DNA of 16,518 bases from a virus (IMGVR_UViG_2563366924_000007); one strand, 5' to 3'; counted from the stretch's first letter, positions 1-16,518 are shown. Made by a program: numbers and translations. Notes: generated by a model from the letters alone, not told the origin.

Positions 1-192
1 TCAACGCCTTAATTTATCTGGCTTTCGCCACTGATAGGGAGGCGCTTCCATGCGCTGGCGGTGCCGCTGTTTAGCGGCCAACACCATAGCTGTTTTAGTG
101 CGGATTACCAGCTTATCCTGCCCGTTAAGTTCATGGCCCAATTGACGAGCCATTTCGTCGATCACAGACTCAATTTTCTTGTGTTTGAGCAT
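1..192 (-). CDS. Hypothetical small basic protein downstream of terL (about 63 aa)
   Basis: ORF track 1..198; ATG at 192..190 sits 2 nt after the terL stop; stop TGA at 3..1. No motif recognised. Confidence 0.4.
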   Translation of the reverse strand: MLKHKKIESVIDEMARQLGHELNGQDKLVIRTKTAMVLAAKQRHRQRMEAPPYQWRKPDKLRR

Positions 193-194
193 AT

Positions 195-1856: not shown

Positions 1857-2196
1857 GCTCGTCTTCCTCTTCCGTTTCTACCGGATTCCGGCGGCGGCTC
1901 ACCGGATCAAAGCCCAGCAGCGACGACATTTTAATCATGATTTTTTCAGCATCGGCCTTTGCACTCAGTGCCGGATTTCGGCTCTCGCCACCCTGGCTGT
2001 TAACAATGCTGAACCCACGGCTGGCAAGGTCTTCCACGGCTTTGCGGTACATCGAATAGTTGACGCAAAAAAGCTCAAGGTTGTTCCAGTCGGCGGGTGT
2101 CAGATCGCCACGCTCGGCCAGTTGCTTCGCTTTCGCTTTCCACTGCTGCGCGGCTAACTCATCAAGGTAAGCTGGCGGTTTTGGTGGTCTTGCCAT
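1840..2196 (-). CDS. terS: Terminase small subunit (P27-like)
   Basis: Translation from ATG at 2196 (MARPPKPPAYLDELAAQQWKAKAKQLAERGDLTP...) resembles P27-family small terminases; the longer track ORF to 2364 is an alternative-start extension. Stop overlaps the terL start. Confidence 0.8.
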   Translation of the reverse strand: MARPPKPPAYLDELAAQQWKAKAKQLAERGDLTPADWNNLELFCVNYSMYRKAVEDLASRGFSIVNSQGGESRNPALSAKADAEKIMIKMSSLLGFDPVSRRRNPVETEEEDELDRLE

Positions 2197-2249
2197 AAAA
2201 ATTTCTCGTTTCCATCGCGTTTTATTTTCAAAAAAATCACCGTGCGTAA

Positions 2250-2320
2250 AAATTTGAGGGGGCGGGCGGTGCCTGGCACCTTGAGGTTTGTCCTGAAAAC
2301 CTCCCCCACCCCGTCCATGC
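2250..2320. other. Candidate cos/packaging site in the HNH-terS intergenic region
   Basis: Perfect 13-bp palindrome GGTGCCTGGCACC (2268-2280) flanked by a G-tract (GAGGGGGCGGGCGG) and a C-tract (CCTCCCCCACCCCGTCC), in a roughly 275-bp non-coding gap just upstream of terS. Confidence 0.3.
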
Positions 2321-2471
2321 GGCCTGTCAGCGGTTGCGGAAGCATTCCCGCAACTCCCGTTCACGCTCGCTCATACGCTGCACAGGCTGGCGCTCATTGC
2401 GTCTGCTTCGCCCCTGCATGAAGCCATCACGGCAGCGCATCAATGATCGGTACAGATTCACCACGTCTTTC

Positions 2472-2915
2472 TCATTCATTTCTGCCCTCATACATCCAGT
2501 CATTGCGATGGGCTGCACGCTCTTCCTGCTCACGGTACAGCCCTGCTTTGCGCTTCGCTTTGGTGGTTGGGTCTTGCTGTGTGGTCTTCTGGTTATGATG
2601 CGCCTGGCATAACGGCTGGTGATTCCACTCAGGCCAGAACAGAACGTCATCACCGCCGTTGATAGGGATGATGTGATCGACAATCTTTGCAGGAACGTAG
2701 AGGCCCAGCTTCTGACACTCAACGCACAGCGGATAGCGCTTAAGGTACTGAGCGCGGTACTTCTCCCATGAGGCTGAATAACCACGGGCGCGACGGTGGC
2801 CGCGTCTGGCATCCTCTGCCCGCCACGCTTCCCGCTTATGCTCGTCACACTTGCCAGACTTCACCCGTTTATTGCATCCCGGCTCTGTGCACCGGCGTAG
2901 TGGTTGCCACGGCAT
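2472..2915 (-). CDS. HNH endonuclease (packaging-associated)
   Basis: Cys/His-rich HNH-type motifs (CVECQKLG, HIIPINGGDD, NHQPLCQAHHNQK); ATG at 2915 overlaps the upstream stop; sits immediately before terS. Confidence 0.85.
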   Translation of the reverse strand: MPWQPLRRCTEPGCNKRVKSGKCDEHKREAWRAEDARRGHRRARGYSASWEKYRAQYLKRYPLCVECQKLGLYVPAKIVDHIIPINGGDDVLFWPEWNHQPLCQAHHNQKTTQQDPTTKAKRKAGLYREQEERAAHRNDWMYEGRNE

Positions 2916-3208
2916 CAGTACACCCCCACATCTCGGTAGACAGACCACAACGCAGAGACAGCCATCGGTATCTCTTTGGCGTCGGTGTCACCAATCATCG
3001 TGCGGTACTCGTACAGCTGAGAGACGTACATCAAACAGCCGATCTTGATAGCCGGGGTGAACTCCAGACCGTTATCAAATCGCTTGCCGATATGCTTCTG
3101 GCAGACCTCCAGCGCAGCTTCGATGTACGCCTGTATCAACGTATCTTCGTAATCATCATCAATACGGCAATGCAGCTTTGCTTCTTCCAGACCGATTAAC
3201 TCACTCAT
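2915..3208 (-). CDS. gp6-like head-tail connector / DNA-packaging protein
   Basis: Translation from ATG at 3208 (MSELIGLEEAKLHCRIDDDYEDTLIQAYIEAALEVCQKHIG...) matches the gp6-like connector pattern; GGAGG Shine-Dalgarno upstream; the track ORF to 3460 is an extension. Confidence 0.75.
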   Translation of the reverse strand: MSELIGLEEAKLHCRIDDDYEDTLIQAYIEAALEVCQKHIGKRFDNGLEFTPAIKIGCLMYVSQLYEYRTMIGDTDAKEIPMAVSALWSVYRDVGVY

Positions 3209-3539
3209 TGAAAATGCCTCCCTTGCACAGCAGCTCAAGCCGGGTGTGATCCACATCAGGAATGACGGCCACGATGCCGTAAACCTGCCCCCGGACGTTT
3301 GGCGAGCGGTACAGAATGCGGTTTGCGGTGGTGATATCGTCGCGGTAGCGCGTCCAGATTCGCACAGTGGCTTCGGAGTAAAGCGCCCCGGAAGACATGC
3401 GCTCACGCCCGCTGATAGCACGAATTTCAGCCCAGACTGAGGCAAGGTCAGCCCATTCATAGATAACCTGACCAGTCGGGTCGCGGTGAGATTCCGACTT
3501 CTGAAAGGTAACGCGGCGTTTCATCTTTCCGGCTCTCAT
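3201..3539 (-). CDS. Head-tail adaptor / head closure protein
   Basis: 112 aa with the pattern typical of this family (VWAEIRAISGRE...IWTRYR...LELLCKG); ATGA overlap with the portal stop. Confidence 0.75.
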   Translation of the reverse strand: MRAGKMKRRVTFQKSESHRDPTGQVIYEWADLASVWAEIRAISGRERMSSGALYSEATVRIWTRYRDDITTANRILYRSPNVRGQVYGIVAVIPDVDHTRLELLCKGGIFNE

Positions 3540-4771
3540 ACGTCACCGTCCTTGCTGTCTTTACTGATCTTCACTTCCTGCTTCCATGCCTGACTGAACT
3601 CGTCACCACCTTCACGCGGCGGCATACCCTCACGCTCACGGGCTTCGTTCGGGTTCATAATCCCGTTCTTGATACCGCGCTCATAAGTGGCGTAACGCTC
3701 GGTAGGTGTGGCACGGAGAAGGTCAGCGGAGTCAAACTCCACCAGATAGCGGGTTCCCGGAACGGGAGAGGCCACCAGCAGCGCGGATTTAATTTGTTGC
3801 TCGAAGTTCGCCAGCCACGGACGCATCGTCATGGTGAGAAATGCGCGGCTCGCCTCACTAAAATTGCTGTAGGTGCTGTTGCTGTATTCCTGCAAGAAGA
3901 TGGGAGAAACGTTAAACATGCGGGCAATGTCTTCAATGGAGAAGCGCCGGGAGGCCAGCCACTCAGCATCCTGATTGCTCATGCCAAGTTGCTTATAGTC
4001 CATGCCACCTTCAAGGATCGGCGTTTTCCCGGCATTTCTGGCACCTTTGTAACGTTCCAGCGCATCCATTGCCTGTTTGCCCTTCACGCTGTCGAGCCAT
4101 TCTTTAGTTACCACTACCCCCGAAGCCATCATCCCATCTTTCATAATGCTGGCACCGTGGCGCTGTTGTGCCAGACCTAACCCCAGCGCCTCACGGCAGA
4201 TGGTGATCGGCGAACGCCCCAGAAAACCATCATCGGTGGAGTAACGCAGGTGCAGAATCTCTTCCTGCAGGTAGGTGCGCACTGCCCCGGTAAACGGTTC
4301 AGTAACGGTGTATTTGTACTTATGCTGGCCGATACGCTCAGGAACAACCGCCCCCGGCGCATACGGATGCAGGGATTGCGGCTGGCCGTCACGGCCCCAC
4401 TGGATCACCGCATAGGCGTTACCATTCAGCAGGCAATGACGCATCATCGTGCGCTTGAACTGGTAAGGCGTCTGACAGTCGTTCGGTTGCTCGTTAAGGA
4501 GAAAATCCACCGGGTGATTGCTTAGCCACTCCCGCGCTTCTCGGCCGTTATCGTTGCGCACGCGGTAGAGGTAGCAGGGCATTGTTGCCACTGCCTCGCT
4601 GATAACTGATATGGCGTTCATGACCGCCGGCAGAGATTCCGCAGTACCGGCAGACACATATTCGCCTGATCCGGTATTTGGAATCCCTGCCATCGCCAGA
4701 AACTCATCAATCGTCATGCTGCGCTGTTCGGATGGCTCAGATTTACGGCCAAAAGGCCAGATATTCCACAT
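3536..4771 (-). CDS. Phage portal protein (HK97-type)
   Basis: 411 aa; position between protease and adaptor; sequence character of HK97-family portals. Confidence 0.88.
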   Translation of the reverse strand: MWNIWPFGRKSEPSEQRSMTIDEFLAMAGIPNTGSGEYVSAGTAESLPAVMNAISVISEAVATMPCYLYRVRNDNGREAREWLSNHPVDFLLNEQPNDCQTPYQFKRTMMRHCLLNGNAYAVIQWGRDGQPQSLHPYAPGAVVPERIGQHKYKYTVTEPFTGAVRTYLQEEILHLRYSTDDGFLGRSPITICREALGLGLAQQRHGASIMKDGMMASGVVVTKEWLDSVKGKQAMDALERYKGARNAGKTPILEGGMDYKQLGMSNQDAEWLASRRFSIEDIARMFNVSPIFLQEYSNSTYSNFSEASRAFLTMTMRPWLANFEQQIKSALLVASPVPGTRYLVEFDSADLLRATPTERYATYERGIKNGIMNPNEAREREGMPPREGGDEFSQAWKQEVKISKDSKDGDV

Positions 4772-4772
4772 A

Positions 4773-5333
4773 TCACAGCCCCGCTAAGTCAGCCCAGCGT
4801 CGGCGGTTATCACCAGCACGGCGCAGTTCAGGATGTTGGGAGAACAGAGAACGGTGCGCAATTTCCACGCCGGACTCAGGGTAAGCAGGCATAGAAGTAA
4901 CGGTGATCTCCCGCAGCTCGGCAGCGGTAACAGTGCGAATATACGGTGTAGGAGTAATATCCCAGGACTCTTTCAGCGCACGGAATCCGAAGCTCATGCC
5001 GGAAATGTCTCCACGCTCCACCAGCTCCAGCACATCATTGCCAAGTTGGGTGTTTGGCGGGGTCAGCTCGAAACGCAGCCCGGTATCATCTTCGGACAAC
5101 ACCAGCGTGCCGGATTTGGTACGCCCCAGCAGTTGGGTATAGTTATGCTCGTACAGTGCACGCACATCGCTACCGGATGCCAGGCTGTCTTTAAACGCCC
5201 CCGGCGCAAACTGCTCGCGGAACTCATCCCAGATCACCTCTGACAGGCTGTTCCAGCGCACGGCATAGCCCACCAGCTTTTTGTTGCTGGCGCTCAGTTC
5301 GGAGGTACGGATTTCAAAATCGATTGTTTTCAT
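4773..5333 (-). CDS. Prohead maturation protease (HK97-type)
   Basis: 186 aa; resembles HK97-family prohead proteases; GGAG Shine-Dalgarno before the ATG at 5333. Confidence 0.85.
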   Translation of the reverse strand: MKTIDFEIRTSELSASNKKLVGYAVRWNSLSEVIWDEFREQFAPGAFKDSLASGSDVRALYEHNYTQLLGRTKSGTLVLSEDDTGLRFELTPPNTQLGNDVLELVERGDISGMSFGFRALKESWDITPTPYIRTVTAAELREITVTSMPAYPESGVEIAHRSLFSQHPELRRAGDNRRRWADLAGL

Positions 5334-5351
5334 TGTTGGACTCCACAGAGG

Positions 5352-5378
5352 GCAAAAAGGGGCCGAAGCCCCTTAAAC
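5352..5378 (-). terminator. Intrinsic terminator-like hairpin between capsid and protease genes
   Basis: On the minus strand GGGGC-uucg-GCCCC followed by UUUUUG. Confidence 0.5.
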
Positions 5379-5384
5379 GTCAGA

Positions 5385-6551
5385 TCAGGAACCGGAACCG
5401 GAAAGCTCAAGCACCTTGATGGCGTTGGAGTCCACCACACCACCGCCTAGGTATTTATCGGTGTGCACCTTGTAGAAACCAGGTTCGGTGATGTTGTCGG
5501 GGCGGGTACGCACGCCAGTGGTGTGATCCACGATGAAGTAACCGCGCTTAAAGTCGCCGACTGCCAGGAACGCTTCACCCGCAGCCGCATCAGGCATGGT
5601 TTCCAGATATTGAACCGGACGGCCAAGGAGGGTATCGGGAGAGTCAGCGACGAGACGATCACGCCAGATGTAATCCCCGTTGCCGTTTTTCAGCTTTTGC
5701 AGCGTAGCGGCAGTGTTGGAGTTCATCACCCATACGGCATTTTTACGGTATTTGGCTTTCAGCTTATACAGCAGGTCGATCAATCCATCAGAGGAAACGG
5801 CAGCAGCTTCCATTTTCTCCAGCGTTCCGAACGGACGGGTTTTATCGCTGGTGGCCGCACGCGGATAGGACAGGAACCCTTTGGATTTTTTATCACCGTC
5901 GCCGTTCACAAAGTCGGTTTCTTCGGTAGCAGTGAAGGTGTCGGTGATTTCGGAAGACAGCCAACCCAGAATATCAACTTCGGAGAAGTCGAGAATTTCC
6001 TGAGTGGTTTTCGGGTAGGCGTAGATCGGGTTGAGTTTGATATCAACGCGCTCCATCTTAGGTGTGCTGGTTTCGGTACGCGCTTCGCCTTCGGTGCCGC
6101 GCTTAACGGTAGTGCCACCCACTGATACCAGCTTCTGGTATTCGTTGGTTTTGGTGGTCTTCACCGTAGCGATGGAGCGCATAACGCTGTCATCCTGCAA
6201 CTGGCGCATGATCTCTTTGTCCAGCTCAGGGATAACGGTATAGCCGCCGTCAGCCTGCACCAACGTGGAGAGAGAGCGGGTATCGCCGGTCATGATGTAG
6301 TGGCGCAGCTCATCGTTGCTTACACCTTTACCTTCAACAGAAGTACCAGGCAGATTGCGCTGATCGTCGGCGACGGCCTCAAGGCGGGTAATTTCAACTT
6401 CAAGCGCATCAGCCTGGGCGCGGAGTTCATCGAACTGCTTGCCCTCTTCATCGTTCAGGCTTCGCTTTTCGCTGTCAGCTTTTTCCAGCATGGAACGCAT
6501 CTGGGTTTTGAGTGCGGCTTTCTGCTGGCGTAATTCAAGTAATTTCTTCAT
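5385..6551 (-). CDS. Major capsid protein (HK97-fold) with N-terminal coiled-coil delta domain
   Basis: From ATG at 6551 (MKKLLELRQQKAALKTQMRSMLEKADSEKR...) a charged coiled-coil N-terminus then an HK97-like capsid body; the track ORF to 6668 adds an implausible N-terminal extension. Confidence 0.88.
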   Translation of the reverse strand: MKKLLELRQQKAALKTQMRSMLEKADSEKRSLNDEEGKQFDELRAQADALEVEITRLEAVADDQRNLPGTSVEGKGVSNDELRHYIMTGDTRSLSTLVQADGGYTVIPELDKEIMRQLQDDSVMRSIATVKTTKTNEYQKLVSVGGTTVKRGTEGEARTETSTPKMERVDIKLNPIYAYPKTTQEILDFSEVDILGWLSSEITDTFTATEETDFVNGDGDKKSKGFLSYPRAATSDKTRPFGTLEKMEAAAVSSDGLIDLLYKLKAKYRKNAVWVMNSNTAATLQKLKNGNGDYIWRDRLVADSPDTLLGRPVQYLETMPDAAAGEAFLAVGDFKRGYFIVDHTTGVRTRPDNITEPGFYKVHTDKYLGGGVVDSNAIKVLELSGSGS

Positions 6552-6575
6552 GGAGTGGTTTCCGTAACAATTAAC

Positions 6576-6672
6576 GTTGAGACGTGAAACCAGCGCTTGG
6601 AGGGATGTCCACCTGGAAAGGAAACCGTCGCAGAACGGGAAAGAACCAGGTGGACAGTGGCGGCTCACGTCT
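6576..6672. promoter_or_regulatory. Nested inverted repeats in the capsid-operon leader/promoter region
   Basis: Perfect 11-bp inverted repeat TGTCCACCTGG (6606-6616) / CCAGGTGGACA (6646-6656) inside an outer 8-bp inverted repeat AGACGTGA (6580-6587) / TCACGTCT (6665-6672). Confidence 0.35.
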
Positions 6673-6813
6673 GAGTGCCACTCTTCAAGATATACATAAT
6701 AATCAATGAGTAAACACCTCTATGTTGTCGCAAATAGCAGCGAAAACAGGAGAACAAATAATTTACAAAGTTTGATAATATGAACGGGAAAAACACCACT
6801 TCTGGGGGATTTT

Positions 6814-7326
6814 ATGGACTTCGATTTTGATGATATGGCATACCCGGATATTTTTTTAATTTCCGGCGAGGAGTTTAAAGGAAGCCGGAACACAGGAAAA
6901 AATCAGGTAGATATCCCGTTTACTGACGAACCGCAAATTGAATTGGGTGATATTCTGATTCAGAAGATTGGAAGCCGCGAGTTAAGCCTTAAAGTTGTCG
7001 ATCTTTCAATATCAAAGAATGGAACGCTGAACGTAGGTACAACGCATCCTCACTTACTTACGTTATCCGTAGAGAATCTTTCTTCCGACGCACACAGGAC
7101 AGCAAAGAGCATGAATACTTTTAATATTGGCTCCGTCAGTGGTGAGCAAGTTCAAATAGGTGAAAGTAATCATATGCTGGTGAATATCAGTATTACTGAA
7201 CTTGTCGAGAAAGTAGCCAAATCTGGCGATCCACAGGCTAAATCAATGTTGAAACAGTTACTGGAAAATAGCACCGTTGCCAGTATCGTTGGCGCTGGCG
7301 CTTCCGCGCTGTTAGGTCTGCTTTAA
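6814..7326 (+). CDS. Hypothetical protein, AT-rich, with C-terminal hydrophobic Gly/Ala-rich tail (170 aa)
   Basis: Clean ORF with a GGGGGA Shine-Dalgarno-like sequence before the ATG; opposite orientation to neighbours; C-terminus VASIVGAGASALLGLL looks like a membrane anchor. No recognised domain. Confidence 0.6.
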   Translation: MDFDFDDMAYPDIFLISGEEFKGSRNTGKNQVDIPFTDEPQIELGDILIQKIGSRELSLKVVDLSISKNGTLNVGTTHPHLLTLSVENLSSDAHRTAKSMNTFNIGSVSGEQVQIGESNHMLVNISITELVEKVAKSGDPQAKSMLKQLLENSTVASIVGAGASALLGLL

Positions 7327-7330
7327 AATA

Positions 7331-7351
7331 TGGCCTGGGAACACCAGGCCA
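7331..7351. terminator. Hairpin between the convergent genes
   Basis: TGGCCTGG-gaaca-CCAGGCCA, perfect 8-bp stem; a U-rich tail follows on the minus-strand transcript. Confidence 0.5.
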
Positions 7352-7372
7352 CTAGCCTACATGGCAGGATGA

Positions 7373-7708
7373 TTATTCTTTATCCAGCCCCCACTGATAG
7401 AAAGCCCAGCTTGCCGTTGATTGTGCGCTATGGATAGCGTTCTCAAGGCCAGAGGTTGGGTACGACAAATCAGCCGCCATCCTCTGTAGAAGATCGAGGT
7501 AAGCGCTGGCGTCTTTCGACAACTCTTGCCCCCCTTCTTCCAGCCCAGACTGGTACGATTCCAGATCAAGTTTTTCAGAAGTGACAAAAGCGCTCAGAGC
7601 CAGAAAATCCGTCACCGTAATCTCATCTTTATTTGAAAGCTCATCAACGGCGCTGTAGAGAAACTTAACATCGCTCATATGCCCGTTATCTTTGCCAATC
7701 AGTTTCAT
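7373..7708 (-). CDS. Hypothetical small acidic protein (111 aa)
   Basis: ATG at 7708 preceded by AAGAGG at good spacing; acidic composition; sits just downstream of the iteron origin. No recognised domain. Confidence 0.6.
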   Translation of the reverse strand: MKLIGKDNGHMSDVKFLYSAVDELSNKDEITVTDFLALSAFVTSEKLDLESYQSGLEEGGQELSKDASAYLDLLQRMAADLSYPTSGLENAIHSAQSTASWAFYQWGLDKE

Positions 7709-7744
7709 TAATGACCTCTTTATTTTTCACGTATATATACAAAA

Positions 7745-8030
7745 CTATGTTGGTTCAGTTAGTTCAGTTGGTTCAATTTGTAAAGATCATTGTTTTATAA
7801 GGATTATTTTCCGATGAGTGAACCAACAAAGCCCCGATTTGAACCAACATTGGGTATTTTCATGTTGGTTCAGCCCATGAGGTTCTAAAATGTTGGTTCA
7901 AACTGCCCGTTTGTTGGTTCAAAACTGATATTTGTTGGTTCAGTGTTGGTTCGTTTTTTTGACATTAAACCCATATAAAACAGCCATATGAACATAACCA
8001 ATAAACACTGAACCAACTGAACCAACATTA
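7745..8030. repeat. Iteron array, putative origin of replication
   Basis: At least 11 copies of TGTTGGTTCA or its reverse complement in four clusters (about 7749-7776, 7819-7849, 7863-7953, 8009-8026) with AT-rich spacers, directly 3' of the replication gene. Confidence 0.7.
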
Positions 8031-8050
8031 ACAACCCTCACATGTGTAAT

Positions 8051-10186
8051 TTATTCTTCTCCATCTTCCGCAACCTGGTGAAGCACATAAACGTTAATTT
8101 GACGCCCATCAATACGCGGGGATTTCTGCTGGTATCCACGCCCGCTGGACGGCTCAGAAAGCAAGCCAGCAGCGGCAAGCACGCGGGCAAACTGCCTGGC
8201 GTTAAAGCCCTGAGCTATCTCCTTCTCAAACGTTGCGGGGAACGTATAGAACACCAGCGGCGCATCATCATGGCTGCTTTTGCGCTTTCGATACCCGGCC
8301 AAATCGCGAATTGGCATACTGGACGGATCATAGGGCAACGGTGCAAAGCGGCTTAAACCGTAGGCATTCAGGAACGCCTCGCACTGCTCGATGATCTGCT
8401 GGTGCTCTTTGTTACCCGTGCCGAACTCTTTCACCCAGGCGTTAAAGCTATGCTGGATAGCGTCACGGCTGGCCTGTTCACTCCATCCGGTGATTGATGC
8501 ACCAGTTACCAGCGCGGCTTCGAGGATTGCAAAACGTTCAGCCACGCGGTGTACCTGCTCACCGTAGTCAGCCGGGATGAGGCCGCGCCAGCGCGTTTGC
8601 GCGTCACGCACCGCCTGTTTAGCCTCCTGCTGGTTAGCCGCCAGCCATTTAACCCACTCACGCCCCGCCGCCCCGTGGTTATCAATCCAGGCTTCTTTCA
8701 GTGCGTCAGCATGAGCCTTGCCGTTTGGCAGACCGTTAAAAGCCGTCGATTTCTCCATAGGGATGTTGAGCAAGCGCACCAGTTGGCCCGCTTTCACTTT
8801 CAGCCCACCAGCAGCCAGGAAGGTTTCAATATCCATTTCCCCGGTGCTGATCGCCACAGTGCGCCAGCGTTTAAGCTCCCGATTGCCGCCCTCTTTGGCT
8901 CCCTGCAACTTTCCGGCACCGTTAAACAGGGTGTAGGCAGACGTAGCAACATCTTTGGCACTGCTGCCCTGTCCTACCTCATCAAGCGGTAACAGGCTGT
9001 CGTTATGCGCCTCCGCTTCGTTTGCTATGCCAAGCGCAGTACCGTACCAGGTAAGCCGCAACGCATCAGGCTCACCCCACAGGCTGCTCGCAATATTGGC
9101 GGTAGTGGTCTTACCGGCGCTCGACTGCTCGAACAAATGGACGCCGAAACCATCAGCCCCCACCAGGCCAATAAGCGGCGCGGATAATGCCGCTGCCACG
9201 CCCAGCATCATGGACGGATTGCCCCCGGCCAGACGGGCGACGGAATCCCGCCAGGTGGCAGCAGTACCAGCAATGGCATACCCGGAAGATGCAGCGCTGC
9301 GACCGTTAAAGAGAATGGGCGTCTCTGGATCACCAATCACTTCACCATCAGGCATGATATATGCGCCGTGATGCCAGCCAGTGGTATGGGTGATAATCCA
9401 TTCCCGATCAGTGCCGCTTTGCTGCAACCAGTCGGCCAGAATCGCCCGGAATGTGCTTTTAGTGGTCACATTCACCCCACCAGCTTTAAGTGAGCGCCAG
9501 CCGTCGCGCTCACCGATATCAGCACAGGGGATCGCCCTGGTAATATCTTCATGGCCACGCGGCGAACGCCAGCGCAAAACAAGATAGCGCTCTGCCCCGT
9601 CACTACCGGAGCCGACCACCTCAAGAGGCGAGCACAGCCACGTTTCGTTATTGATGATCTCGCCACTATCCTTGTCCACCTTTGGCGTGATCCAGTACAG
9701 GCCATCGCTCCGGCTCTCCACGCGGGGTTTGAGTTCATCGCCCGGTTCAGGCTTTGGCTCCCGTTTTTTTACAGGCAGGTTCACCACAATGCTTTCCCCG
9801 CGTTCGGCCTCTTCTTTGAGACGTGGAAGCCTGCCCGTCCAGTCCTCCTTCGGCTGAGGCTCAAACATGCCATTAAACAGCCTGGCCTCTTTCACATCCG
9901 CCAGCGCCAGTTTGGTTGCGATAGTGCTTATCTGCATTTCGGAAAGTTCGCCAGCGCGGATCACACGAACACTGCGACGGCCGTTATCAACAATGTTTAA
10001 CCGTTCCAGTTCCGCAAGTTGCCTTTTACCCAGATAAACAGGCGGTACATCATCCCATGCCCTTTTACCTTCGCTCTCGATCCAGTGCTGCACATGCGAA
10101 TAGGCATCTTCACCCGCAAAGATAATCGCCTCGGTAAATTTATCTTTCGGCAGGAATTTAATGTTCGGGGCATTCTTCATCTTCAT
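8051..10186 (-). CDS. Replication initiator/helicase-like P-loop NTPase (satellite Rep type)
   Basis: 711 aa; Walker A-like SSAGKTTT and Walker B-like LLPLDEVG; adjacent to iterons; start translationally coupled to the upstream small ORF. Confidence 0.7.
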   Translation of the reverse strand: MKMKNAPNIKFLPKDKFTEAIIFAGEDAYSHVQHWIESEGKRAWDDVPPVYLGKRQLAELERLNIVDNGRRSVRVIRAGELSEMQISTIATKLALADVKEARLFNGMFEPQPKEDWTGRLPRLKEEAERGESIVVNLPVKKREPKPEPGDELKPRVESRSDGLYWITPKVDKDSGEIINNETWLCSPLEVVGSGSDGAERYLVLRWRSPRGHEDITRAIPCADIGERDGWRSLKAGGVNVTTKSTFRAILADWLQQSGTDREWIITHTTGWHHGAYIMPDGEVIGDPETPILFNGRSAASSGYAIAGTAATWRDSVARLAGGNPSMMLGVAAALSAPLIGLVGADGFGVHLFEQSSAGKTTTANIASSLWGEPDALRLTWYGTALGIANEAEAHNDSLLPLDEVGQGSSAKDVATSAYTLFNGAGKLQGAKEGGNRELKRWRTVAISTGEMDIETFLAAGGLKVKAGQLVRLLNIPMEKSTAFNGLPNGKAHADALKEAWIDNHGAAGREWVKWLAANQQEAKQAVRDAQTRWRGLIPADYGEQVHRVAERFAILEAALVTGASITGWSEQASRDAIQHSFNAWVKEFGTGNKEHQQIIEQCEAFLNAYGLSRFAPLPYDPSSMPIRDLAGYRKRKSSHDDAPLVFYTFPATFEKEIAQGFNARQFARVLAAAGLLSEPSSGRGYQQKSPRIDGRQINVYVLHQVAEDGEE

Positions 10187-10551
10187 CAGTGCAACACCTT
10201 ATTGGACATATCCGCGCCCAGGTCTTCATGCAGGTACTCAAGGTGGCAGCTTTTCACTATCTGCAACCCCATTTCGTTAATATCGCCATCGTCGGTAAAG
10301 CAGGTCAGCAGAATATCCCGCAAACGCCTTAACCCCTCATCGCGCCCGAATTCTTCAAAGCAGCCAAAAATCATATATTTCATCAATACGTTTTCAGTTA
10401 CGCGCGGCTCCAGCGTGAAGCGATAGCGGGCCATATACTTATCGCTTTCCACCAGCAAGGTTGCCGAACCGGTTTCCGCTATCTGGTGAGCAATACAGGT
10501 TTCGGTCAGTTTGCGGAACAATGGGCCTATCACTTCAAAAATATCGGTCAT
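10186..10551 (-). CDS. Hypothetical protein (121 aa), coupled to rep
   Basis: ATG at 10551 in an ATGA overlap with the upstream stop; its own stop overlaps the rep start. Confidence 0.5.
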   Translation of the reverse strand: MTDIFEVIGPLFRKLTETCIAHQIAETGSATLLVESDKYMARYRFTLEPRVTENVLMKYMIFGCFEEFGRDEGLRRLRDILLTCFTDDGDINEMGLQIVKSCHLEYLHEDLGADMSNKVLH

Positions 10552-10916
10552 TGCGGGATACCTCCGCTCATCTGAAATTTGCCAAGTAATGGGTGATACC
10601 AGTACGCCGATCCGTATTTACGTTTTGCACTACGCAGCACCAGCCGCGCCGCCTCTCTGAATTTCTCATCAGGAGCCACGAACCCGCCTGATTTTAACCG
10701 TACCAGCATTACCCCTGTGTTTTTCGCCAGTTCTTCGGCCTTCTTGGTTGAAATGCCAAACTCCGCCGCCAGCGTAGTAACCGGACTCATACCCGGGGGG
10801 ATTTCGCCACCCTGGCTATCTGTGAGTGATTTGATCTGCAGCTCGAGGTTCAATACCTTCTCCACCAGCAAATCGAGGCGCTTTTCCAGTTCGTTGAATT
10901 TAACGTTACTGATCAT
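10548..10916 (-). CDS. Putative DNA-binding protein with N-terminal coiled coil (about 122 aa)
   Basis: From the internal ATG (MISNVKFNELEKRLDLLVEKVLNLELQIKSL...) with a helix-turn-helix-like segment TTLAAEFGISTKKAEELAKNTG; this start gives an ATGA overlap with the upstream gene. Confidence 0.45.
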   Translation of the reverse strand: MISNVKFNELEKRLDLLVEKVLNLELQIKSLTDSQGGEIPPGMSPVTTLAAEFGISTKKAEELAKNTGVMLVRLKSGGFVAPDEKFREAARLVLRSAKRKYGSAYWYHPLLGKFQMSGGIPQ

Positions 10917-11221
10917 TTGAACACCCCCTGACGCTGCCTGAGCACGAAACTGGCTGTGCAACTGTTCTGCTCCAGAGCCTTAGCTAACCGGGGAAGATTT
11001 CGCAGCGTGTCACCCAATAACATCATGTCGCGGCGTGCTTTTTCGTTGCTGTATTCCTCACTCAGCGATGCCTCAAGCATCAGGTTTCCAATCAGGGTAA
11101 GGGTATTGCTGACAGCGCGTGCTGCCTCGCTACAGACGTCAGAAACCTCAGATAAATCATCATCAGAATGTCTTCTGAAATCTGGCGCGTGCTTTACAAG
11201 TTGATGGTAAATATCACGCAT
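10913..11221 (-). CDS. Hypothetical protein (102 aa)
   Basis: ATG-initiated ORF within the coupled minus-strand operon; no recognised motif. Confidence 0.45.
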   Translation of the reverse strand: MRDIYHQLVKHAPDFRRHSDDDLSEVSDVCSEAARAVSNTLTLIGNLMLEASLSEEYSNEKARRDMMLLGDTLRNLPRLAKALEQNSCTASFVLRQRQGVFK

Positions 11222-11402
11222 GGGTCACCTCACTTGCCGCTTTTAGTTCACGAACGCGGGACAACGACATGCTGATCAGATCCATCGCAACGCTGTACTC
11301 GGTTTCATCATCAAAATTCATATACAGCGATGTTGAGAGCAACGCTTCCAGGCGGCGCAGTTCATCTTCAATGTCAATTTCCGACCATTTGACCTTACGC
11401 AT
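11214..11402 (-). CDS. Hypothetical small acidic protein (62 aa)
   Basis: ATG at 11402; overlaps the stop of the upstream ORF. Confidence 0.4.
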   Translation of the reverse strand: MRKVKWSEIDIEDELRRLEALLSTSLYMNFDDETEYSVAMDLISMSLSRVRELKAASEVTHA

Positions 11403-11607
11403 GGCGCACCTCCATACTCTGAAATGCGTGGAACGGCAGGCGGGCAGCGAAAACGAGGGTTACGCCGGGCATGGTGTCTCGGGCTTCCTGCTCACTGGAT
11501 GCGTTGACGTAGATTACCAACGGCTTTGCGGTTGGGTATCGCTCAGAGGTGAAGAGAAATCTCCATGTAAATTCCGGGCGAGTTTGGGTAGACTGATTGT
11601 CAGCCAT
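11395..11607 (-). CDS. Hypothetical protein (70 aa), first gene of the replication operon
   Basis: Internal ATG at 11607 (MADNQSTQTRPEFTW...) preceded by GAGGT; the longer track ORF to 12099 runs antisense through the RHH gene and is rejected. Confidence 0.4.
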   Translation of the reverse strand: MADNQSTQTRPEFTWRFLFTSERYPTAKPLVIYVNASSEQEARDTMPGVTLVFAARLPFHAFQSMEVRHA

Positions 11608-11637
11608 AACTGTTACCTCACTTAACGGTTTGGTGAG

Positions 11638-11679
11638 ACGCCTCGGTACTGCTCGAACAGTCCGGGGCGTTGTTTTTTT
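11638..11679 (+). terminator. Strong hairpin plus T-tract in the divergent regulatory region
   Basis: ACGCCTCGG ... CCGGGGCGT stem with an inner ACTG/CAGT stem, followed by TGTTTTTTT on the plus strand. Confidence 0.4.
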
Positions 11680-11700
11680 AGATAGCACCGTGTTAAGGTG

Positions 11701-11737
11701 TGTACCTATTAAAGAAAACATTACGCCAATAGGTACG
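11701..11737. promoter_or_regulatory. Candidate operator: 9-bp perfect inverted repeat just upstream of the RHH gene
   Basis: GTACCTATT (11702-11710) and AATAGGTAC (11729-11737) separated by 18 bp, ending 4 bp before the ATG at 11741. Confidence 0.35.
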
Positions 11738-11740
11738 CAC

Positions 11741-11935
11741 ATGTCAACACCCATTAAACGAGATCGGCAACCAAAAGGAGCCGGGAAAGCACCAGCGTTC
11801 CAGATTCGAATCCCCCCCGAACTTAAAGAGCAATTTGAAAAAGAAGCCCAAGCAGAGAGTGTTAGCCTCGCAAATTGGATGAAGGAATTAGGCCGGGAAG
11901 CCCTCCGAAAGAAAGGTATTGAGCCAAAAGGCTGA
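11741..11935 (+). CDS. Arc/CopG-like ribbon-helix-helix DNA-binding protein (64 aa), candidate repressor
   Basis: MSTPIKRDRQPKGAGKAPAFQIRIPPELKEQFEKEAQAESVSLANWMKELGREAL has a beta-strand plus two-helix RHH pattern; divergent from the replication operon. Confidence 0.5.
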   Translation: MSTPIKRDRQPKGAGKAPAFQIRIPPELKEQFEKEAQAESVSLANWMKELGREALRKKGIEPKG

Positions 11936-12032
11936 ATAAAATCAGCGGGCGCAGAATTGCGCTGGCTCATTCTTTGACCACCAGCATTAACCCTGGTATG
12001 CTTAATCTGTTTCGGTTTTTCGTAGTGACATT

Positions 12033-12060
12033 GGCAGCTCTGCAAAGCTGCCTTTGTTTT
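12033..12060 (+). terminator. Intrinsic terminator after the RHH gene
   Basis: GGCAGCT-ctgcaa-AGCTGCC followed by TTTGTTTT; abuts the ant stop codon on the other strand. Confidence 0.55.
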
Positions 12061-12838
12061 ATTCAGCGTCAGCATTCGGCACCTCCGGCAATACACCACC
12101 AGCGATCAGTCTTTTCGTTAACCACTGCTCACCTTTCCCTGTCAGCATCGTTGTGAATGAGGCTCTTACCTCGCCATTCGTTTCATACGTTCCCTGGCGA
12201 ACGGCAAAATAACCGCTATCGATATAACGCTGCATAGGCAGGTTGTGGCGCTGGCCGCCATTGATGAGAATCCCCTGTTGCCTCATCCAGCCGAATAATT
12301 TGATGGGGCCAAGCCCTACGGCTTTGGCATAGTTTGGAATGGAAATCCCCTTACTGATCTCTGCCACGCGATCAGCAAAATCAACTTTTGGCGCAGCGGC
12401 CACCAGCCGGTTTTCAAGTTCGCTTGCCTTTTCGGCAAGATCAGCGGCAAGGCGCAGGGCTTCCGGTAACGTCTGGGGGATATTAGCGGCGGCTTTTGCC
12501 TGGCGTTCGCAGTTGATGAAGTAGCGGCGTACCTCCCGCCCTTTTTCGTTGCGCTCAACCATTGCCAGCTCTTTACCCATATCAATAGTGATCAGGTAGT
12601 CATGTTCCATCTGCTGCCGAGATTTTGCGCTCGCCCGTTTTGGCGTGCTCAAACTTTCAACAATGATGTAATCGACTCCAGTAGTGAAGCCGTACTGGCT
12701 AATACGCCCTTTAATCCAGTTGGTGAAATCACGCCCAACGCCGAGAAACGCATGGAGTTTTTTTGCACTGACCAGCGATACCGTCACGCCGCCAATATTT
12801 CCGGGGTTAACCGGAACCAGCTCATTTAATTTTTGCAT
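12059..12838 (-). CDS. Phage antirepressor (AntA N-terminal plus KilAC C-terminal domain)
   Basis: N-terminal HDYLITIDMGKELAMVERNEKGREVRRYFINCE and a C-terminal KilAC-like region. Confidence 0.8.
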   Translation of the reverse strand: MQKLNELVPVNPGNIGGVTVSLVSAKKLHAFLGVGRDFTNWIKGRISQYGFTTGVDYIIVESLSTPKRASAKSRQQMEHDYLITIDMGKELAMVERNEKGREVRRYFINCERQAKAAANIPQTLPEALRLAADLAEKASELENRLVAAAPKVDFADRVAEISKGISIPNYAKAVGLGPIKLFGWMRQQGILINGGQRHNLPMQRYIDSGYFAVRQGTYETNGEVRASFTTMLTGKGEQWLTKRLIAGGVLPEVPNADAE

Positions 12839-12846
12839 AGCGCCCC

Positions 12847-13131
12847 CTACGCAGGTTTACGGTTGTAAGGGGTATTGACGTTCTCAACAGCAGGTGGATT
12901 GCGAACCCACCAAAGAACATCTGACAGAAGCCATGCGCAACTATTACGGCCAAAGTGGCAGCGTGGCGGGAATTTACCTTCGTTCTCCATATACCAGCGG
13001 GTGGAACGGGAAAGGCTGGTTATTTCGAAGCATTCACTTTCACGAATACGGCGATCAAACTTAATGCCATATTCTGCGAGAATGGTGCGGCGTTGTTCAG
13101 GTGTTGGCGGGGTAAAAAGAGTATTTGACAT
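12847..13131 (-). CDS. alpA: AlpA-family transcriptional regulator / excisionase-like protein
   Basis: HTH segment ITSLSRSTRWYMENEGKFPPRCHFGRNSCAWLLSDVLWWV; strong GGAGG Shine-Dalgarno before the ATG at 13131. Confidence 0.7.
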   Translation of the reverse strand: MSNTLFTPPTPEQRRTILAEYGIKFDRRIRESECFEITSLSRSTRWYMENEGKFPPRCHFGRNSCAWLLSDVLWWVRNPPAVENVNTPYNRKPA

Positions 13132-13235
13132 GCTTCCTCCACTTCACACATTCAGAAGGACACTTTCCTAACTGTTCTTGTGTTGTGGAGGAATATTGAT
13201 ATCTACATCATCTTACTGATACAGAAGAAAAAAAA

Positions 13236-14042
13236 TCATTTCCTACGCCTATTTTTTTGCTCAATCAACCTCTCCCGGATTTCTCTCTCAAACTTTTCCA
13301 ACGAAAAATTTGCAAGATTTTTTTCGAAAAAAGGCCGAATAGTTTCACAGAGTTTCTTTTCTCCGACTGATAGATCAGGGAAAATCGAACCGGCAATTAC
13401 ACTACTGCTTATCCTGTTTCCTGTAATTTTTTGCCAGCAGAACAGGTCAGCATAGGGGAAGATTCCATAACTTATTATCTTCCTTCTGGCTACTTCCCAA
13501 GAATTTATTGATAGTTCATTATTTGGGTCTGGAATATTTAAGGAATTTCGCCATGATGAAAGCAAAGATGATAAGTCTTCAATTAAAAATTCATCAGGAT
13601 AACGTAAATCCAATTTAACAAAGAAATCATCCCCGAAGTTATCAATCAGATTAATACAGTCCAGCAACCCCAAAGTATCAGCATCATCATATTCATCAAC
13701 TACTTTTTTAGAGTGCATTATTTTGAATATATCGTGACGCTGTAAAGGCTCAATCAGCATTGACGAACCAAGCCGTTTACCTGCATTTGAGTTATCTTCC
13801 TGCATATCGGATTGCACGCAATCAACACCAGCAAAAGCATCCTCACTATATTTTCTGTCAGCTACTGGATTAGACATTATTATTTTTAAATCATCTTCAT
13901 CTATCCATTTCTCATAGTCTGCGACCATATAATGACGCATTAATAACTGATTAAAAAACTCTCTATCATCTAATGATTCAAAAGTTTTATATTTCCCTAT
14001 ATCGAAATACTCCGGCAAATCGCTTTTCTTGTTAATTAACAT
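13236..14042 (-). CDS. Hypothetical protein (268 aa), markedly AT-rich, adjacent to the integrase; candidate cargo gene
   Basis: Clean ORF with a GAGGGTG Shine-Dalgarno-like sequence; by eye far more AT-rich than the flanking integrase and alpA; acidic, no recognised catalytic motif. Confidence 0.6.
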   Translation of the reverse strand: MLINKKSDLPEYFDIGKYKTFESLDDREFFNQLLMRHYMVADYEKWIDEDDLKIIMSNPVADRKYSEDAFAGVDCVQSDMQEDNSNAGKRLGSSMLIEPLQRHDIFKIMHSKKVVDEYDDADTLGLLDCINLIDNFGDDFFVKLDLRYPDEFLIEDLSSLLSSWRNSLNIPDPNNELSINSWEVARRKIISYGIFPYADLFCWQKITGNRISSSVIAGSIFPDLSVGEKKLCETIRPFFEKNLANFSLEKFEREIRERLIEQKNRRRK

Positions 14043-14133
14043 ATCGTCACCCTCAACGCCCCTAATAACTTGCGAGCCAGGCGGGTAGGGTTTCCCGCTT
14101 TTCGGTTGGCCGACCTAGACCCGCAATATCAGT

Positions 14134-15360
14134 TTAATCTCTATTCGCTACAGGTAACAGAACAACATTTTGATGATTACCCGCAAGAAGTTCTAAGCGG
14201 TCATACCACTTGTTCAGCGCGTCCAGCTTCTCCGGCAAGTACAGACTACGGTTATAAATCGCCATAACTCCCGGCATTGAATGGCCCAGCAACTGTTCAA
14301 CAACGTGCGGAGCGATACCCATATTATTCATATGCGTTGCAAGCGTTCGCCGTAGATCATGCAATGTCCAAGGTTCAGAATGCCCCAGTTTTTTATAAAC
14401 ACTACGGCCCCACTGGCTAACCGCTTCGCTATTCTTCACAACCCCAAGAAGGTAGCCGGATGATTTTGTTTCATCGTGGAGCATTTCAATAAATGAACGC
14501 ATCGCCTCCGGAACTGGACGCACAATCTTTTCACCGCCTTTACTATGCGCTTTTGGTACTGTCCACATCCACGCCTCCATATCCCATTCGGCCCACTCTG
14601 ACAATCTGGCCTCCTGGGTGCGGCAACCAAACAAAGTAGTGATCCTGAGCAAGTTTGTGTAGTAAGGCAGAAAAACATCGCCGGACGATATAGCAGCCCA
14701 CAATCCCCCAACCTCTTTATCTTTCAGTACACGATCTTTTTTCGCCTGCTTTTTACCAACATCGGGAATACTCAAATCTTCAAGGGCGGTACTGACGGCG
14801 TAACGGCGAACGCGGCAGAATTTCAGAGCCTGCTTACACATCTGGAATACATAACCAGCAGCAACCGGCGTTTTCTTTTTCATCCTGTCAAAGCAGTCAA
14901 GCCAGTAACGGGTTTCGCAGTCAGCGAGCGCCATTTTCCCAATATAAGGGTAAATGTGTTTGCGCAGCTCCGCTTTATGCCGCTCAACGTTCGCACGGTT
15001 TTCTTCCGCATATTCGCGTATCCAGTATTCGATAGCTTCCTGCACCGTGACCGGTTTAAGCGTTTCCTGAGTAGTTAGCGCCAACTGGTGCTTTGGGTCT
15101 TTACCAGAGGCCAGCCACTGACGACATTTATCACGCGAGGAACGGGCCTCTTTGAGACTCATATCAGGGTAGCGCCCCAGAGTCAGCCGATGCAGCTTCT
15201 GCCCGTCGAGTCGGTAAGTAAACACCCAGCTAATGCCACCAGCTTTCGTTACCTTAGCGCTCAACCCGGCACCATCAGCATAAAACTCAATCTTACTGGC
15301 CGGGATGCCATGTAATCCCTTTAACTTCCTGTCGCTCAGTTTGTTAAGTTCGCCAGCCAT
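14134..15360 (-). CDS. int: Tyrosine site-specific integrase (P4-like)
   Basis: 408 aa with catalytic-domain pattern (R in FGCRTQEARL, HDLRRTLATH, LLGHS, Y in AIYNRSLY) and an N-terminal arm-binding-like region. Confidence 0.9.
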   Translation of the reverse strand: MAGELNKLSDRKLKGLHGIPASKIEFYADGAGLSAKVTKAGGISWVFTYRLDGQKLHRLTLGRYPDMSLKEARSSRDKCRQWLASGKDPKHQLALTTQETLKPVTVQEAIEYWIREYAEENRANVERHKAELRKHIYPYIGKMALADCETRYWLDCFDRMKKKTPVAAGYVFQMCKQALKFCRVRRYAVSTALEDLSIPDVGKKQAKKDRVLKDKEVGGLWAAISSGDVFLPYYTNLLRITTLFGCRTQEARLSEWAEWDMEAWMWTVPKAHSKGGEKIVRPVPEAMRSFIEMLHDETKSSGYLLGVVKNSEAVSQWGRSVYKKLGHSEPWTLHDLRRTLATHMNNMGIAPHVVEQLLGHSMPGVMAIYNRSLYLPEKLDALNKWYDRLELLAGNHQNVVLLPVANRD

Positions 15361-15380
15361 AGACCATCACCCAGCCCAAA

Positions 15381-15403
15381 GTGTTTATACAAATGTTTAT
15401 ACA
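15381..15403. repeat. Tandem direct repeat upstream of int
   Basis: TGTTTATACA at 15381-15390 and 15394-15403, in AT-rich DNA between the int start and the element boundary. Confidence 0.3.
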
Positions 15404-15533
15404 GAATTGCTTGCATAATAGCATAAACAACAAAAAGCACTGGAACAATATACAGTTACATTTTCATTTAACTGATTGATTTTAAATAAAATATAAAAAC
15501 CACCGCAAAGCATGAAAACAGCTAATCTGACAG

Positions 15534-15548
15534 TACGGCATGAACTAA
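15534..15548 (+). other. Probable attachment-site core matching the last codons of fis (right junction)
   Basis: TACGGCATGAACTAA encodes Y-G-M-N-stop, the Fis C-terminus, but an in-frame TGA lies two codons upstream, so only the terminal fragment is present; host-like intergenic DNA and yhdJ follow. Confidence 0.35.
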
Positions 15549-15572
15549 TTCAGGTTAGCTAAATGCTTGATT

Positions 15573-15608
15573 AAAAAGGCGCTACTCGGCATGGGGAAGC
15601 GCCTTTTT
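15573..15608 (+). terminator. Intrinsic terminator upstream of yhdJ (probably the fis terminator)
   Basis: AAAAAGGCGC ... GCGCCTTTTT perfect 10-bp stem with a T-tract. Confidence 0.55.
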
Positions 15609-15633
15609 TATAGGTGTCACAAAGGGAGTGACC

Positions 15634-16518
15634 ATGAGAACAGGATGTGAACCGACCCGGTTTGGTAATGAAGCTAAGACCATTATTCACGGTGATGCCC
15701 TTGCCGAACTTAAAAAGCTACCTACTGAAAGCGTCGATCTGATCTTTGCCGACCCACCGTATAACATCGGTAAAAATTTTGATGGTCTGATCGAAGCCTG
15801 GAAAGAAGATCTATTTATCGACTGGCTGTTTGAAGTGATTGCAGAGTGCCACCGCGTTCTGAAAAAGCAGGGCAGCATGTACATTATGAACAGTACGGAA
15901 AACATGCCCTTTATCGATCTCCAGTGCCGCAAGCTTTTTACCATCAAAAGTCGCATCGTCTGGTCATATGACAGTTCTGGAGTACAGGCGAAAAAACACT
16001 ACGGCTCCATGTACGAACCCATCCTGATGATGGTGAAAGACGCAAAGAACTACACATTCAACGGTGATGCTATTCTGGTAGAAGCCAAAACCGGATCGCA
16101 GCGCGCGTTGATCGATTATCGCAAAAATCCTCCACAGCCATACAATCATCAAAAAGTACCGGGTAACGTCTGGGATTTTCCGCGAGTGCGTTATTTAATG
16201 GATGAATATGAGAACCACCCGAAGCAAAAACCGGAAGCCTTACTGAAACGCATTATTCTCGCCTCTTCCAACCCAGGCGATATCGTTCTCGACCCGTTTG
16301 CCGGTAGCTTTACTACCGGTGCCGTAGCCATCGCCAGCGGACGAAAATTCATTGGTATTGAGATCAACAGCGAGTACATCAAAATGGGGCTTCGACGGCT
16401 GGATGTCGCGTCGCATTACTCCGCGGAAGAACTGGCGAAAGTGAAAAAAAGAAAGACGGGCAACCGGTCAAAACGATGCCGGGTTAGCGAAGTTGACCCC
16501 GATCTCATTGCAAAGTAA
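15634..16518 (+). CDS. yhdJ: DNA adenine methyltransferase YhdJ
   Basis: Translation from ATG at 15634 matches my memory of enterobacterial YhdJ (MRTGCEPTRFGNEAKTIIHGDALAELKK...), with the DPPY catalytic motif and FAGSFTTG AdoMet motif; AGGGAG Shine-Dalgarno upstream; the track ORF starts 6 nt earlier at GTG. Confidence 0.85.
   Translation: MRTGCEPTRFGNEAKTIIHGDALAELKKLPTESVDLIFADPPYNIGKNFDGLIEAWKEDLFIDWLFEVIAECHRVLKKQGSMYIMNSTENMPFIDLQCRKLFTIKSRIVWSYDSSGVQAKKHYGSMYEPILMMVKDAKNYTFNGDAILVEAKTGSQRALIDYRKNPPQPYNHQKVPGNVWDFPRVRYLMDEYENHPKQKPEALLKRIILASSNPGDIVLDPFAGSFTTGAVAIASGRKFIGIEINSEYIKMGLRRLDVASHYSAEELAKVKKRKTGNRSKRCRVSEVDPDLIAK

Follow-up and report, generated by a model that had tools for sequence, protein, structure and literature searches.

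A probable cf-PICI attR at the last codons of fis, and doubled putative arm sites that covary with the N-terminal domain of the integrase

The window, by which the whole 16,518-bp stretch of DNA under analysis is meant (IMGVR_UViG_2563366924_000007), ends on its right-hand side in chromosomal sequence. At 15534-15548 on the plus strand it reads TACGGCATGAACTAA (TAC GGC ATG AAC TAA), which translates directly as the Fis terminus Tyr-Gly-Met-Asn followed by a stop codon. This orphan fragment, the last four fis codons (YGMN) with the native TAA, equals the annotated fis end at an empty locus (L002). The native intrinsic terminator of fis follows (15570-15611, plus strand) as an inverted repeat (I1) with a T-run that is the same in empty loci. 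A simple terminator scanner with a loop limit of 8 nt missed it and folding was used instead, giving its hairpin (15570-15583 paired with 15598-15611, plus the T-run) a value of -24.2 kcal/mol with z = -3.6. The adenine DNA methyltransferase gene yhdJ comes next (ATG at 15634, running to 16518, plus strand; Pfam N6_N4_Mtase, 1e-63; annotated as yhdJ in E. coli records). It is the chromosomal gene downstream of attB, and the native fis terminator in front of it is now parted from fis by the inserted element. The first 13 bp of the orphan fragment, TACGGCATGAACT (15534-15546, plus strand), form the attachment core or identity block, a perfect direct repeat common to attL, attR and attB. An imperfect inverted repeat, AGCTAATCTGA/TCAGGTTAGCT (15520-15560; pair I3, 11 nt, 91% complementary, 19 nt apart), flanks the core at attR and is of uncertain significance. 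A tRNA scan found no tRNA genes in the window, and therefore the element is not a tRNA-site island.

On the other side of the core, 173 bp away, lies int (14134-15360, minus strand), the gene of a tyrosine integrase of 408 aa. Pfam identifies an N-terminal Arm-DNA-bind_3 domain (residues 8-92, 3e-19) and a C-terminal Phage_integrase domain (2e-16), the catalytic motifs HDLRR, GH and AIY are intact in the translation, and the N-terminal domain matches the solved N-domains of CP4-like integrases (PDB 3ju0, E = 2e-7; 3jtz, 1e-6). The spacer between int and the core (15361-15533) is the P arm and has a G+C content of 31%, against 51% for the window. It contains a doubled site, TGTTTATACA-AA-TGTTTATACA (15382-15403, plus strand), with a period of 12 bp and its centre 147 bp from the core; the tandem repeat that the initial annotation had noticed upstream of int consists of exact TGTTTATACA copies at 15382-15391 and 15394-15403. 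By window-only statistics the repeat is marginal, with three matches at no more than one mismatch against 0.75 expected, a count equalled by 12 of 200 shuffles, and its reality rests on the comparative data given below. A conserved block, AAAAAGCACTGGAACAATATACAG (15432-15455, plus strand), is kept in P arms of two of the site classes described below (A and B) from several genera, and a related block comes after the doubled site in the P' arm; in a natural attP the two arms share it as a direct repeat of 18 nt at 83% (family D3). A match to the IHF consensus (AATCAATCAGTTA, 15469-15481, minus strand), a candidate bending site, lies halfway from the doubled site to the core. Only one other IHF-consensus match occurs in the 16.5 kb window (15560-15572), both being in this region with 0.65 expected, and many related P arms likewise have a match at -66/-65 from the core. 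A sigma-70-like sequence, TTTTCA-17-TATATT (15490-15518, minus strand), could drive int, which is offered as a suggestion only, one such site being found against 1.1 expected by chance. Both the putative IHF site and the promoter are consensus matches at chance-level frequency and are treated as candidates. The AT-rich spacer, the tandem repeat, the last Fis codons with their stop, the terminator and yhdJ thus all lie where the initial annotation had placed them.

Comparison with unoccupied chromosomes places the boundary between element and host at a single base. In a megablast search with 15100-15900, empty fis-yhdJ loci match the window from exactly 15534 (query position 435). The query matched 5,424 of 5,426 complete E. 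coli genomes, and all but 19 of the matches begin exactly at 15534, under annotated fis and yhdJ. With a 421 bp empty-junction probe, the fis-yhdJ junction is uninterrupted in 5,309 of the 5,426 genomes and split into two places in 110, and therefore about 2% of complete E. coli genomes have something at the site. The empty locus L002 reads ...AAAAAATACGGCATGAACTAATTCAGG...terminator...yhdJ, and island-free loci in general run fis straight into yhdJ. The alignment to such loci that had been proposed as a check gives the direct fis-yhdJ joint and a homology start at 15534. The initial annotation had also held that an island-free locus lacking this DNA would speak against integration; that reasoning is inverted, as such a locus supports it.

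The left junction lies outside the window and is provided by a contig (L174; Logan SRR11046350_162) that matches all 16,518 window bases at 100% and spans both junctions. It was found, together with another contig (L009) identical to window 1-5856, by exact-protein look-ups. In L174 the attL core is 168 bp left of window base 1, where an intact fis is present and TACGGCATGAACT is repeated, and the core-to-core distance is 15,701 bp. The intact gene predicted at the far, out-of-window junction is thus seen, as is the direct repeat at the left end, whose absence had been named as the finding that would tell against integration; the exact homology start, the 13 bp repeat and the empty loci together bear out the proposed integration into the fis 3' terminus. 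Directly past the repeat, attL continues into element DNA (GATAGATTTCAGC...) and attR into native DNA (AATTCAGGTTAGC...), and therefore the crossover took place within those 13 bp. The repeat bounds the crossover segment without locating the exact strand-exchange segment, presumably of 6-8 bp. Imperfect likeness of the two element ends extends for about 78 bp, through the terminator. The complete E. coli genomes compared contain no identical element, the best being mosaics at 88-98% identity. Six other E. coli genomes with related elements have the same attL/attR pair, and the order at their left ends is intact fis, TACGGCATGAAC-TGA, the element hairpin terminator, a second TGTTTATACA-NN-TGTTTATACA and the late genes. 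A contiguous natural attP relic in another locus (L011), beside tRNA-Ile2, has the predicted order of P, core and P'. The tyrosine integrase of the element, apparently a heterobivalent enzyme, very probably recombined an attP core TACGGCATGAACT with the identical 13 bp at the end of fis, which splits the gene four codons ahead of its stop; the excised attP would read ...CTGACAG-TACGGCATGAACT-GATAGATTT....

Several further observations concern these junctions. The same TerL and late module also adjoins tRNA-Ile2, mug and rpoD (L011 5900-6900, L013, L014), and buried inside the L011 island are the 5' end of a truncated int and an attP of the fis type that is complete and contiguous, which fits the "complex tandem" of PMC10111431. 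The attR of E. coli FDAARGOS_1283 (L006 18483-18530, compared with L179 150-200) reads TGA, and its polymorphisms are intermediate between the lineage attB (strain S88, with the same YhdJ protein) and the P' arm of the element. This hybrid attR, with its TGA and mixed polymorphisms, is unexplained by one simple crossover and suggests either gene conversion between the two imperfect repeats of about 78 bp or acquisition together with flanking DNA. Just inside the P' doubled site, on the minus strand of L174 about 90-130 bp right of the attL core (and so outside the window) and at L011 5875-5901, the sequence AAAGCACCAG/CTGGTGCTTT forms a hairpin of 10 perfectly paired bp that is accompanied by a T-run. 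It overlaps the block repeated in the P arm and is probably the terminator of the satellite late operon.

The doubled site recurs, with changed sequence and at constant positions, throughout the elements that target fis. Seventeen integrase relatives with 64-99% amino acid identity were taken from species-level genomes of at least 12 genera (Pluralibacter, Enterobacter, Klebsiella, Pectobacterium, Brenneria, Rosenbergiella, Rahnella, Proteus, Serratia, Yersinia, Scandinavium and Erwinia). All 17 have a fis-terminus core upstream of int, at 170-200 bp in 16 and at about 270 bp in the remaining one (L032), and in all 17 a doubled site whose period is 12 bp lies shortly before the start codon of int. 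The sites fall into four classes, A (TGTTTATACA), B (GTACCCCAC), C (GACTACAC) and D (GTGATACAC). In the relatives and in IMG/VR loci the centres of the doubled sites lie at -147 +/- 1.5 in the arm next to int and at +86 +/- 1.5 in the opposite arm, always co-oriented, the sole exception in spacing being a locus (L025) with a tripled motif at -159. Every complete element examined has the same doubled motif in its P' arm too, co-oriented and at +86. Two further classes, GACTGCAC (L181) and TGACAAC (L180), were found at the predicted places in both arms of E. coli occupants fetched later. At least six arm "codes" are therefore seen, all with a 12 bp period and all at -147/+86, and wherever both arms are visible they are concordant (eight elements of class A, two of class B and one of each of the other four classes). 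An IMG/VR scan for the class C pattern, GACTACACNNNNGACTACAC, was unspecific, returning at least 120 stretches, and among the matches listed 15 adjoined a fis core. Searching the literature for the motif string gave unrelated primer sequences only, and the TGTTTATACA repeat as one of two co-oriented doubled sites (-147 and +86) with at least six sequence classes seems to be unreported.

The sequence class of the doubled site follows the N-terminal domain of the integrase. Over residues 1-95 the integrases of class A share at least 73% identity with the window integrase, and over the rest of the protein 63-99%, whereas those of classes B to D reach at most 64% over residues 1-95. One relative (L023) is 79% identical beyond residue 95 and only 61% in the N-terminal domain, and its motif is different. 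The 22 distinct integrase N-termini from 44 loci sort perfectly by doubled-site class. The most informative comparison is between two Proteus elements, L026 of class A and L032 of class B, which have near-identical AlpA proteins, P-arm DNA of 85-100% identity and 92-100% nucleotide identity in int past about codon 62, whereas their versions of a cassette made up of the doubled site and the initial ~190 nt of int cannot be aligned with each other. The class thus appears to track the first ~60 residues of the integrase and not AlpA, which points to integrase arm-type sites. The covariation of class with the N-terminal domain is what would be expected if this domain recognises the doubled site. 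The classes could partly reflect shared ancestry; the cassette swap in Proteus argues otherwise. The N-terminal domain may then bind both doubled sites and so assemble the recombination complex, with a host bending protein probably acting at about -66 from the core.

The doubled TGTTTATACA might instead be bound by AlpA, as excisionase or regulator, or be a mere operator of int. The study of helper-embedded PICIs leaves the binder of their analogous motif open among the integrase arm domains, AlpA and other proteins (PMC10111431), and the P-arm copy, 22-43 bp upstream of the int start codon, is in a possible place for an operator. There is, however, no reason for an operator to recur as the same motif in the P' arm at the fixed position +86, which is 15.5 kb from int in the integrated element. 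Near-identical AlpA proteins accompany different motifs and different integrase N-termini in the Proteus pair, a comparison on which AlpA as the reader of the doubled site was rejected, and the motif of L023 differs along with its N-terminal domain despite the similarity of the rest of its integrase. Recognition by AlpA, or service purely as an operator, is consequently judged unlikely. An autoregulatory role besides arm binding may still belong to the site.

Taking the doubled sites as arm-type sites of the integrase, the Proteus pair raises the question of how arm site and arm domain have moved. Whether the arm-site sequence and the first ~60 integrase residues have been exchanged together as a cassette among fis-terminus integrases, with core specificity fixed, is a proposal whose chances we consider evenly balanced. 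If it is true, the diversity of arm codes could let satellites that compete for one site, or lie in tandem there, assemble their complexes without cross-reaction. Interchangeable pairs of arm site and arm domain on a constant core would offer a clean system, provided by nature, in which to test the reading of arm sites by heterobivalent integrases, and could give orthogonal parts for integrase engineering, a matter of specialist interest. As an addition to what is known of the family, the pairing of arm codes with arm domains is modest and can be tested.

The structure of the left junction bears on what insertion does to fis. Integration swaps the stop codon from TAA to TGA, and in every attL examined (from Escherichia, Proteus and Scandinavium, and from IMG/VR proviruses) the stretch from the core to the P' doubled site contains a stop codon, a GC hairpin and a T-run. 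The P' arm carries a near-copy of the fis terminator and provides the final base in the context of the stop codon, which becomes TGA; the displaced native end (YGMN-TAA with its terminator) stays at attR before yhdJ. Since the element brings both stop and terminator, the Fis protein is unchanged and the transcript still ends at a strong hairpin, so that termination of the fis transcript is probably preserved after insertion. The initial annotation had raised the possibility of effects on the 3' UTR of fis and on its termination. As to the first, the stop codon does differ, as do about 25 nt of 3' UTR between stop and hairpin, the only difference in that region. As to the second, the terminator borne by the window's element is as stable as the native one by folding (-24.0 against -24.2 kcal/mol), and the same Fis accession, WP_000462905.1, is found at occupied and empty loci. 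A material change of fis expression through the altered 3' UTR or termination is improbable on these grounds, although concern about termination is sound in principle and the roughly 25 changed 3' UTR bases may still have some residual effect. The changed stop and intervening nucleotides speak for it, as does the weaker terminator copy predicted in some relatives (L001, for example, at -18.3 kcal/mol); the equal stability of the replacement in the window's element, the identical protein and the presence of a replacement terminator in every attL examined across genera speak against it. This last regularity suggests selection keeping fis termination intact, and the design of the element probably averts the speculated cost to fis expression. 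A host global regulator is left intact by that design, and it is because fis is left intact that the site tolerates insertion.

The body of the element occupies 1-15533 (minus strand), the remaining 168 bp of its left end being outside the window. From the left it begins with a gene for a 63-aa protein (1-192, minus strand, phrog_7271), followed by Pfam-identified genes for TerL (195-1856), TerS (1840-2196), an HNH protein (2472-2915), a head-tail connector (2915-3208), a head completion protein (3201-3539), the portal (3536-4771), the prohead protease (4773-5333) and an HK97-type major capsid protein (5385-6668). A DUF927 primase (8051-10186) and an AntA/KilAC antirepressor (12059-12838), also from Pfam, separate these from an AlpA-family regulator (12847-13131, minus strand; Pfam Phage_AlpA, 2.4e-10), a probable excision or directionality factor, and from a 268-aa DUF6387 protein (13236-14042, minus strand, Pfam). 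All 11 core components of a cf-PICI, according to the SatelliteFinder definition in PMC10085698, are present by Pfam. The tail and holin families that are forbidden in a cf-PICI had no match among the 20 element ORFs compared with Pfam and the 9 compared with PHROGs, small ORFs on the non-coding strand being only partly covered. By gene content the element is a cf-PICI; dependence on a helper, small capsids of its own and the use of helper tails are consistent with its genes. The segment 15361-15627 of the window is thus very probably the attR of an integrated cf-PICI inserted at the last codons of fis. That it is instead an ordinary temperate prophage, complete or decaying, is highly improbable and was rejected on size and gene content, for although its head and packaging module is complete (HK97-type capsid, protease, portal, connector, TerS and TerL) and public annotations use phage product names, it is only 15.7 kb long, shows no tail, tape-measure, lysis or repressor-switch family match among the scanned ORFs, has the gene set of the 11-component cfPICI definition (PMC10085698) and carries AlpA, which matched 462 of 476 model PICIs and 1 of 169 model prophages in a study whose 3,565 surveyed fis islands included no prophage (PMC10111431).

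Other features of the element and of its relatives were noted in passing. In the 91 nt that separate int from the DUF6387 gene lies the int-alpA RNA motif of Rfam (RF02996; 14059-14125, minus strand; 58 bits against a gathering score of 35.8), a known structured RNA that accompanies genes for int and alpA. The position from int to alpA is a cargo slot, filled here by the DUF6387 protein (268 aa); otherwise near-identical elements have there an unrelated protein of 313 aa (L173/L175/L176) or of about 270-310 aa (L004/L006). A second variable cargo slot, from TerL to attL, contains in relatives (L001 4522-4830, L006 2869-3663) a DUF3892 protein, or a "tail assembly protein" with a small ORF. PADLOC defence-system models had no match among the accessory proteins of the window. 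In a metagenome-derived copy (L177 10529-17811) a Mu-like transposable prophage, with a c-repressor-like gene, a MuA-like transposase and a MuB-like AAA protein, lies inside the satellite prohead protease gene. In E. coli S163-2 (L007 15696-16941) IS1 stands in place of everything between the capsid gene and int, that is, of the regulation and replication modules, and this degenerate remnant is still between intact attL and attR. In E. coli OX442407 (L180 19294-28605) the fis site is taken by a different satellite-like island of about 9.6 kb, which carries int as well as genes for an HTH regulator, a VapE primase and a protein of 762 aa annotated as tape measure, and has its own doubled arm motif, TGACAAC. 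The exact 408-aa window integrase occurs in chromosomal contexts with yhdJ (L033, L034, L036) and without it (L035, L037), the neighbours in the latter being a GGDEF-EAL protein and a TetR regulator. A 99% identical integrase is found in Pluralibacter gergoviae (L016), which fits the reported spread of cf-PICIs across genera.

The fis insertion site and the element family are already well documented, and the finding made in the window is a correct rediscovery. Mageeney et al. (2023, NAR Genomics & Bioinformatics) described 2,642 and later 3,565 islands in fis, in Enterobacterales and beyond, with an identity block consensus of TACGGCATGAACTAA that can extend into the terminator, with yhdJ as the usual gene across the island, with no prophages at the site and with AlpA as the signature gene of PICIs; excision was shown experimentally for Kpn47.16.fis of Klebsiella, which excises and replicates within TACGGCATGAACTGATAC (PMC10111431). 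The identity block TACGGCATGAACT(A/G)A is present here at the fis terminus at both island ends (attR 15534-15546, attL in L174, and six related E. coli islands), and the window element is a member of this group, with which it shares the target, yhdJ across the island, the identity block, the integrase clade by attR, and AlpA. The supplementary attR alignment of that study (PMC10111431) holds P-arm sequence equal to window 15483-15533, for example in Cbr7.16.fis. The resemblance to cf-PICIs, with EcCIEDL933 as prototype (PMC10085698), is equally close. The window element is likewise about 15 kb long and has no tail or holin matches, it keeps the canonical order of int, AlpA, primase, capsid, protease, portal, head-tail adaptor, connector, HNH, TerS and TerL, and near-identical copies across several genera, as reported for cf-PICIs, were also found here, helper and tail use being a prediction from its genes.

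For the doubled site the closest parallel comes from helper-embedded PICIs, in which a doubled motif, tgTGTATTGCantgTGTATTGCa, lies 81 and 132 bp away from the centre of attP; this motif is stated to be absent from the attPs of fis PICIs, for which no motif is reported (PMC10111431). The present analysis differs in finding a different motif at analogous positions. Both systems have two co-oriented tandem half-site pairs with a 12 bp period, one pair per arm at rigid distances, and their integrases are close relatives. They differ in that helper-embedded PICIs have tgTGTATTGCantgTGTATTGCa at 81/132 bp and a late-gene target in a prophage, whereas the elements studied here have at least six sequence classes at 86/147 bp and a target in a chromosomal gene.

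The arrangement also belongs to a wider pattern. Heterobivalent tyrosine integrases that use arm-type sites include lambda Int, P4 Int and CP4-57-like integrases. The window integrase likewise combines an N-terminal arm-binding domain with a catalytic domain, and repeated putative arm sites lie on either side of a short core. Also shared with such systems are the AT-rich P arm, in which there is a candidate IHF site, and a gene close by for a small, probable directionality factor. Lambda and HK022 have the same arm specificity and differ in core specificity; in the fis elements, by contrast, core specificity appears to be constant and arm specificity to vary, as judged from sequence. Integration at the 3' end of a gene with provision of a replacement end is also familiar, from phage 21 or e14 at icd and from many islands at tRNA and tmRNA genes. 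As in those cases, attP of the fis element carries a surrogate 3' end, the target gene remains functional and the orphan native end is left at the other junction. The fis element differs in that it replaces four codons only, and what it supplies is mostly non-coding, namely a stop codon, a 3' UTR and a terminator.
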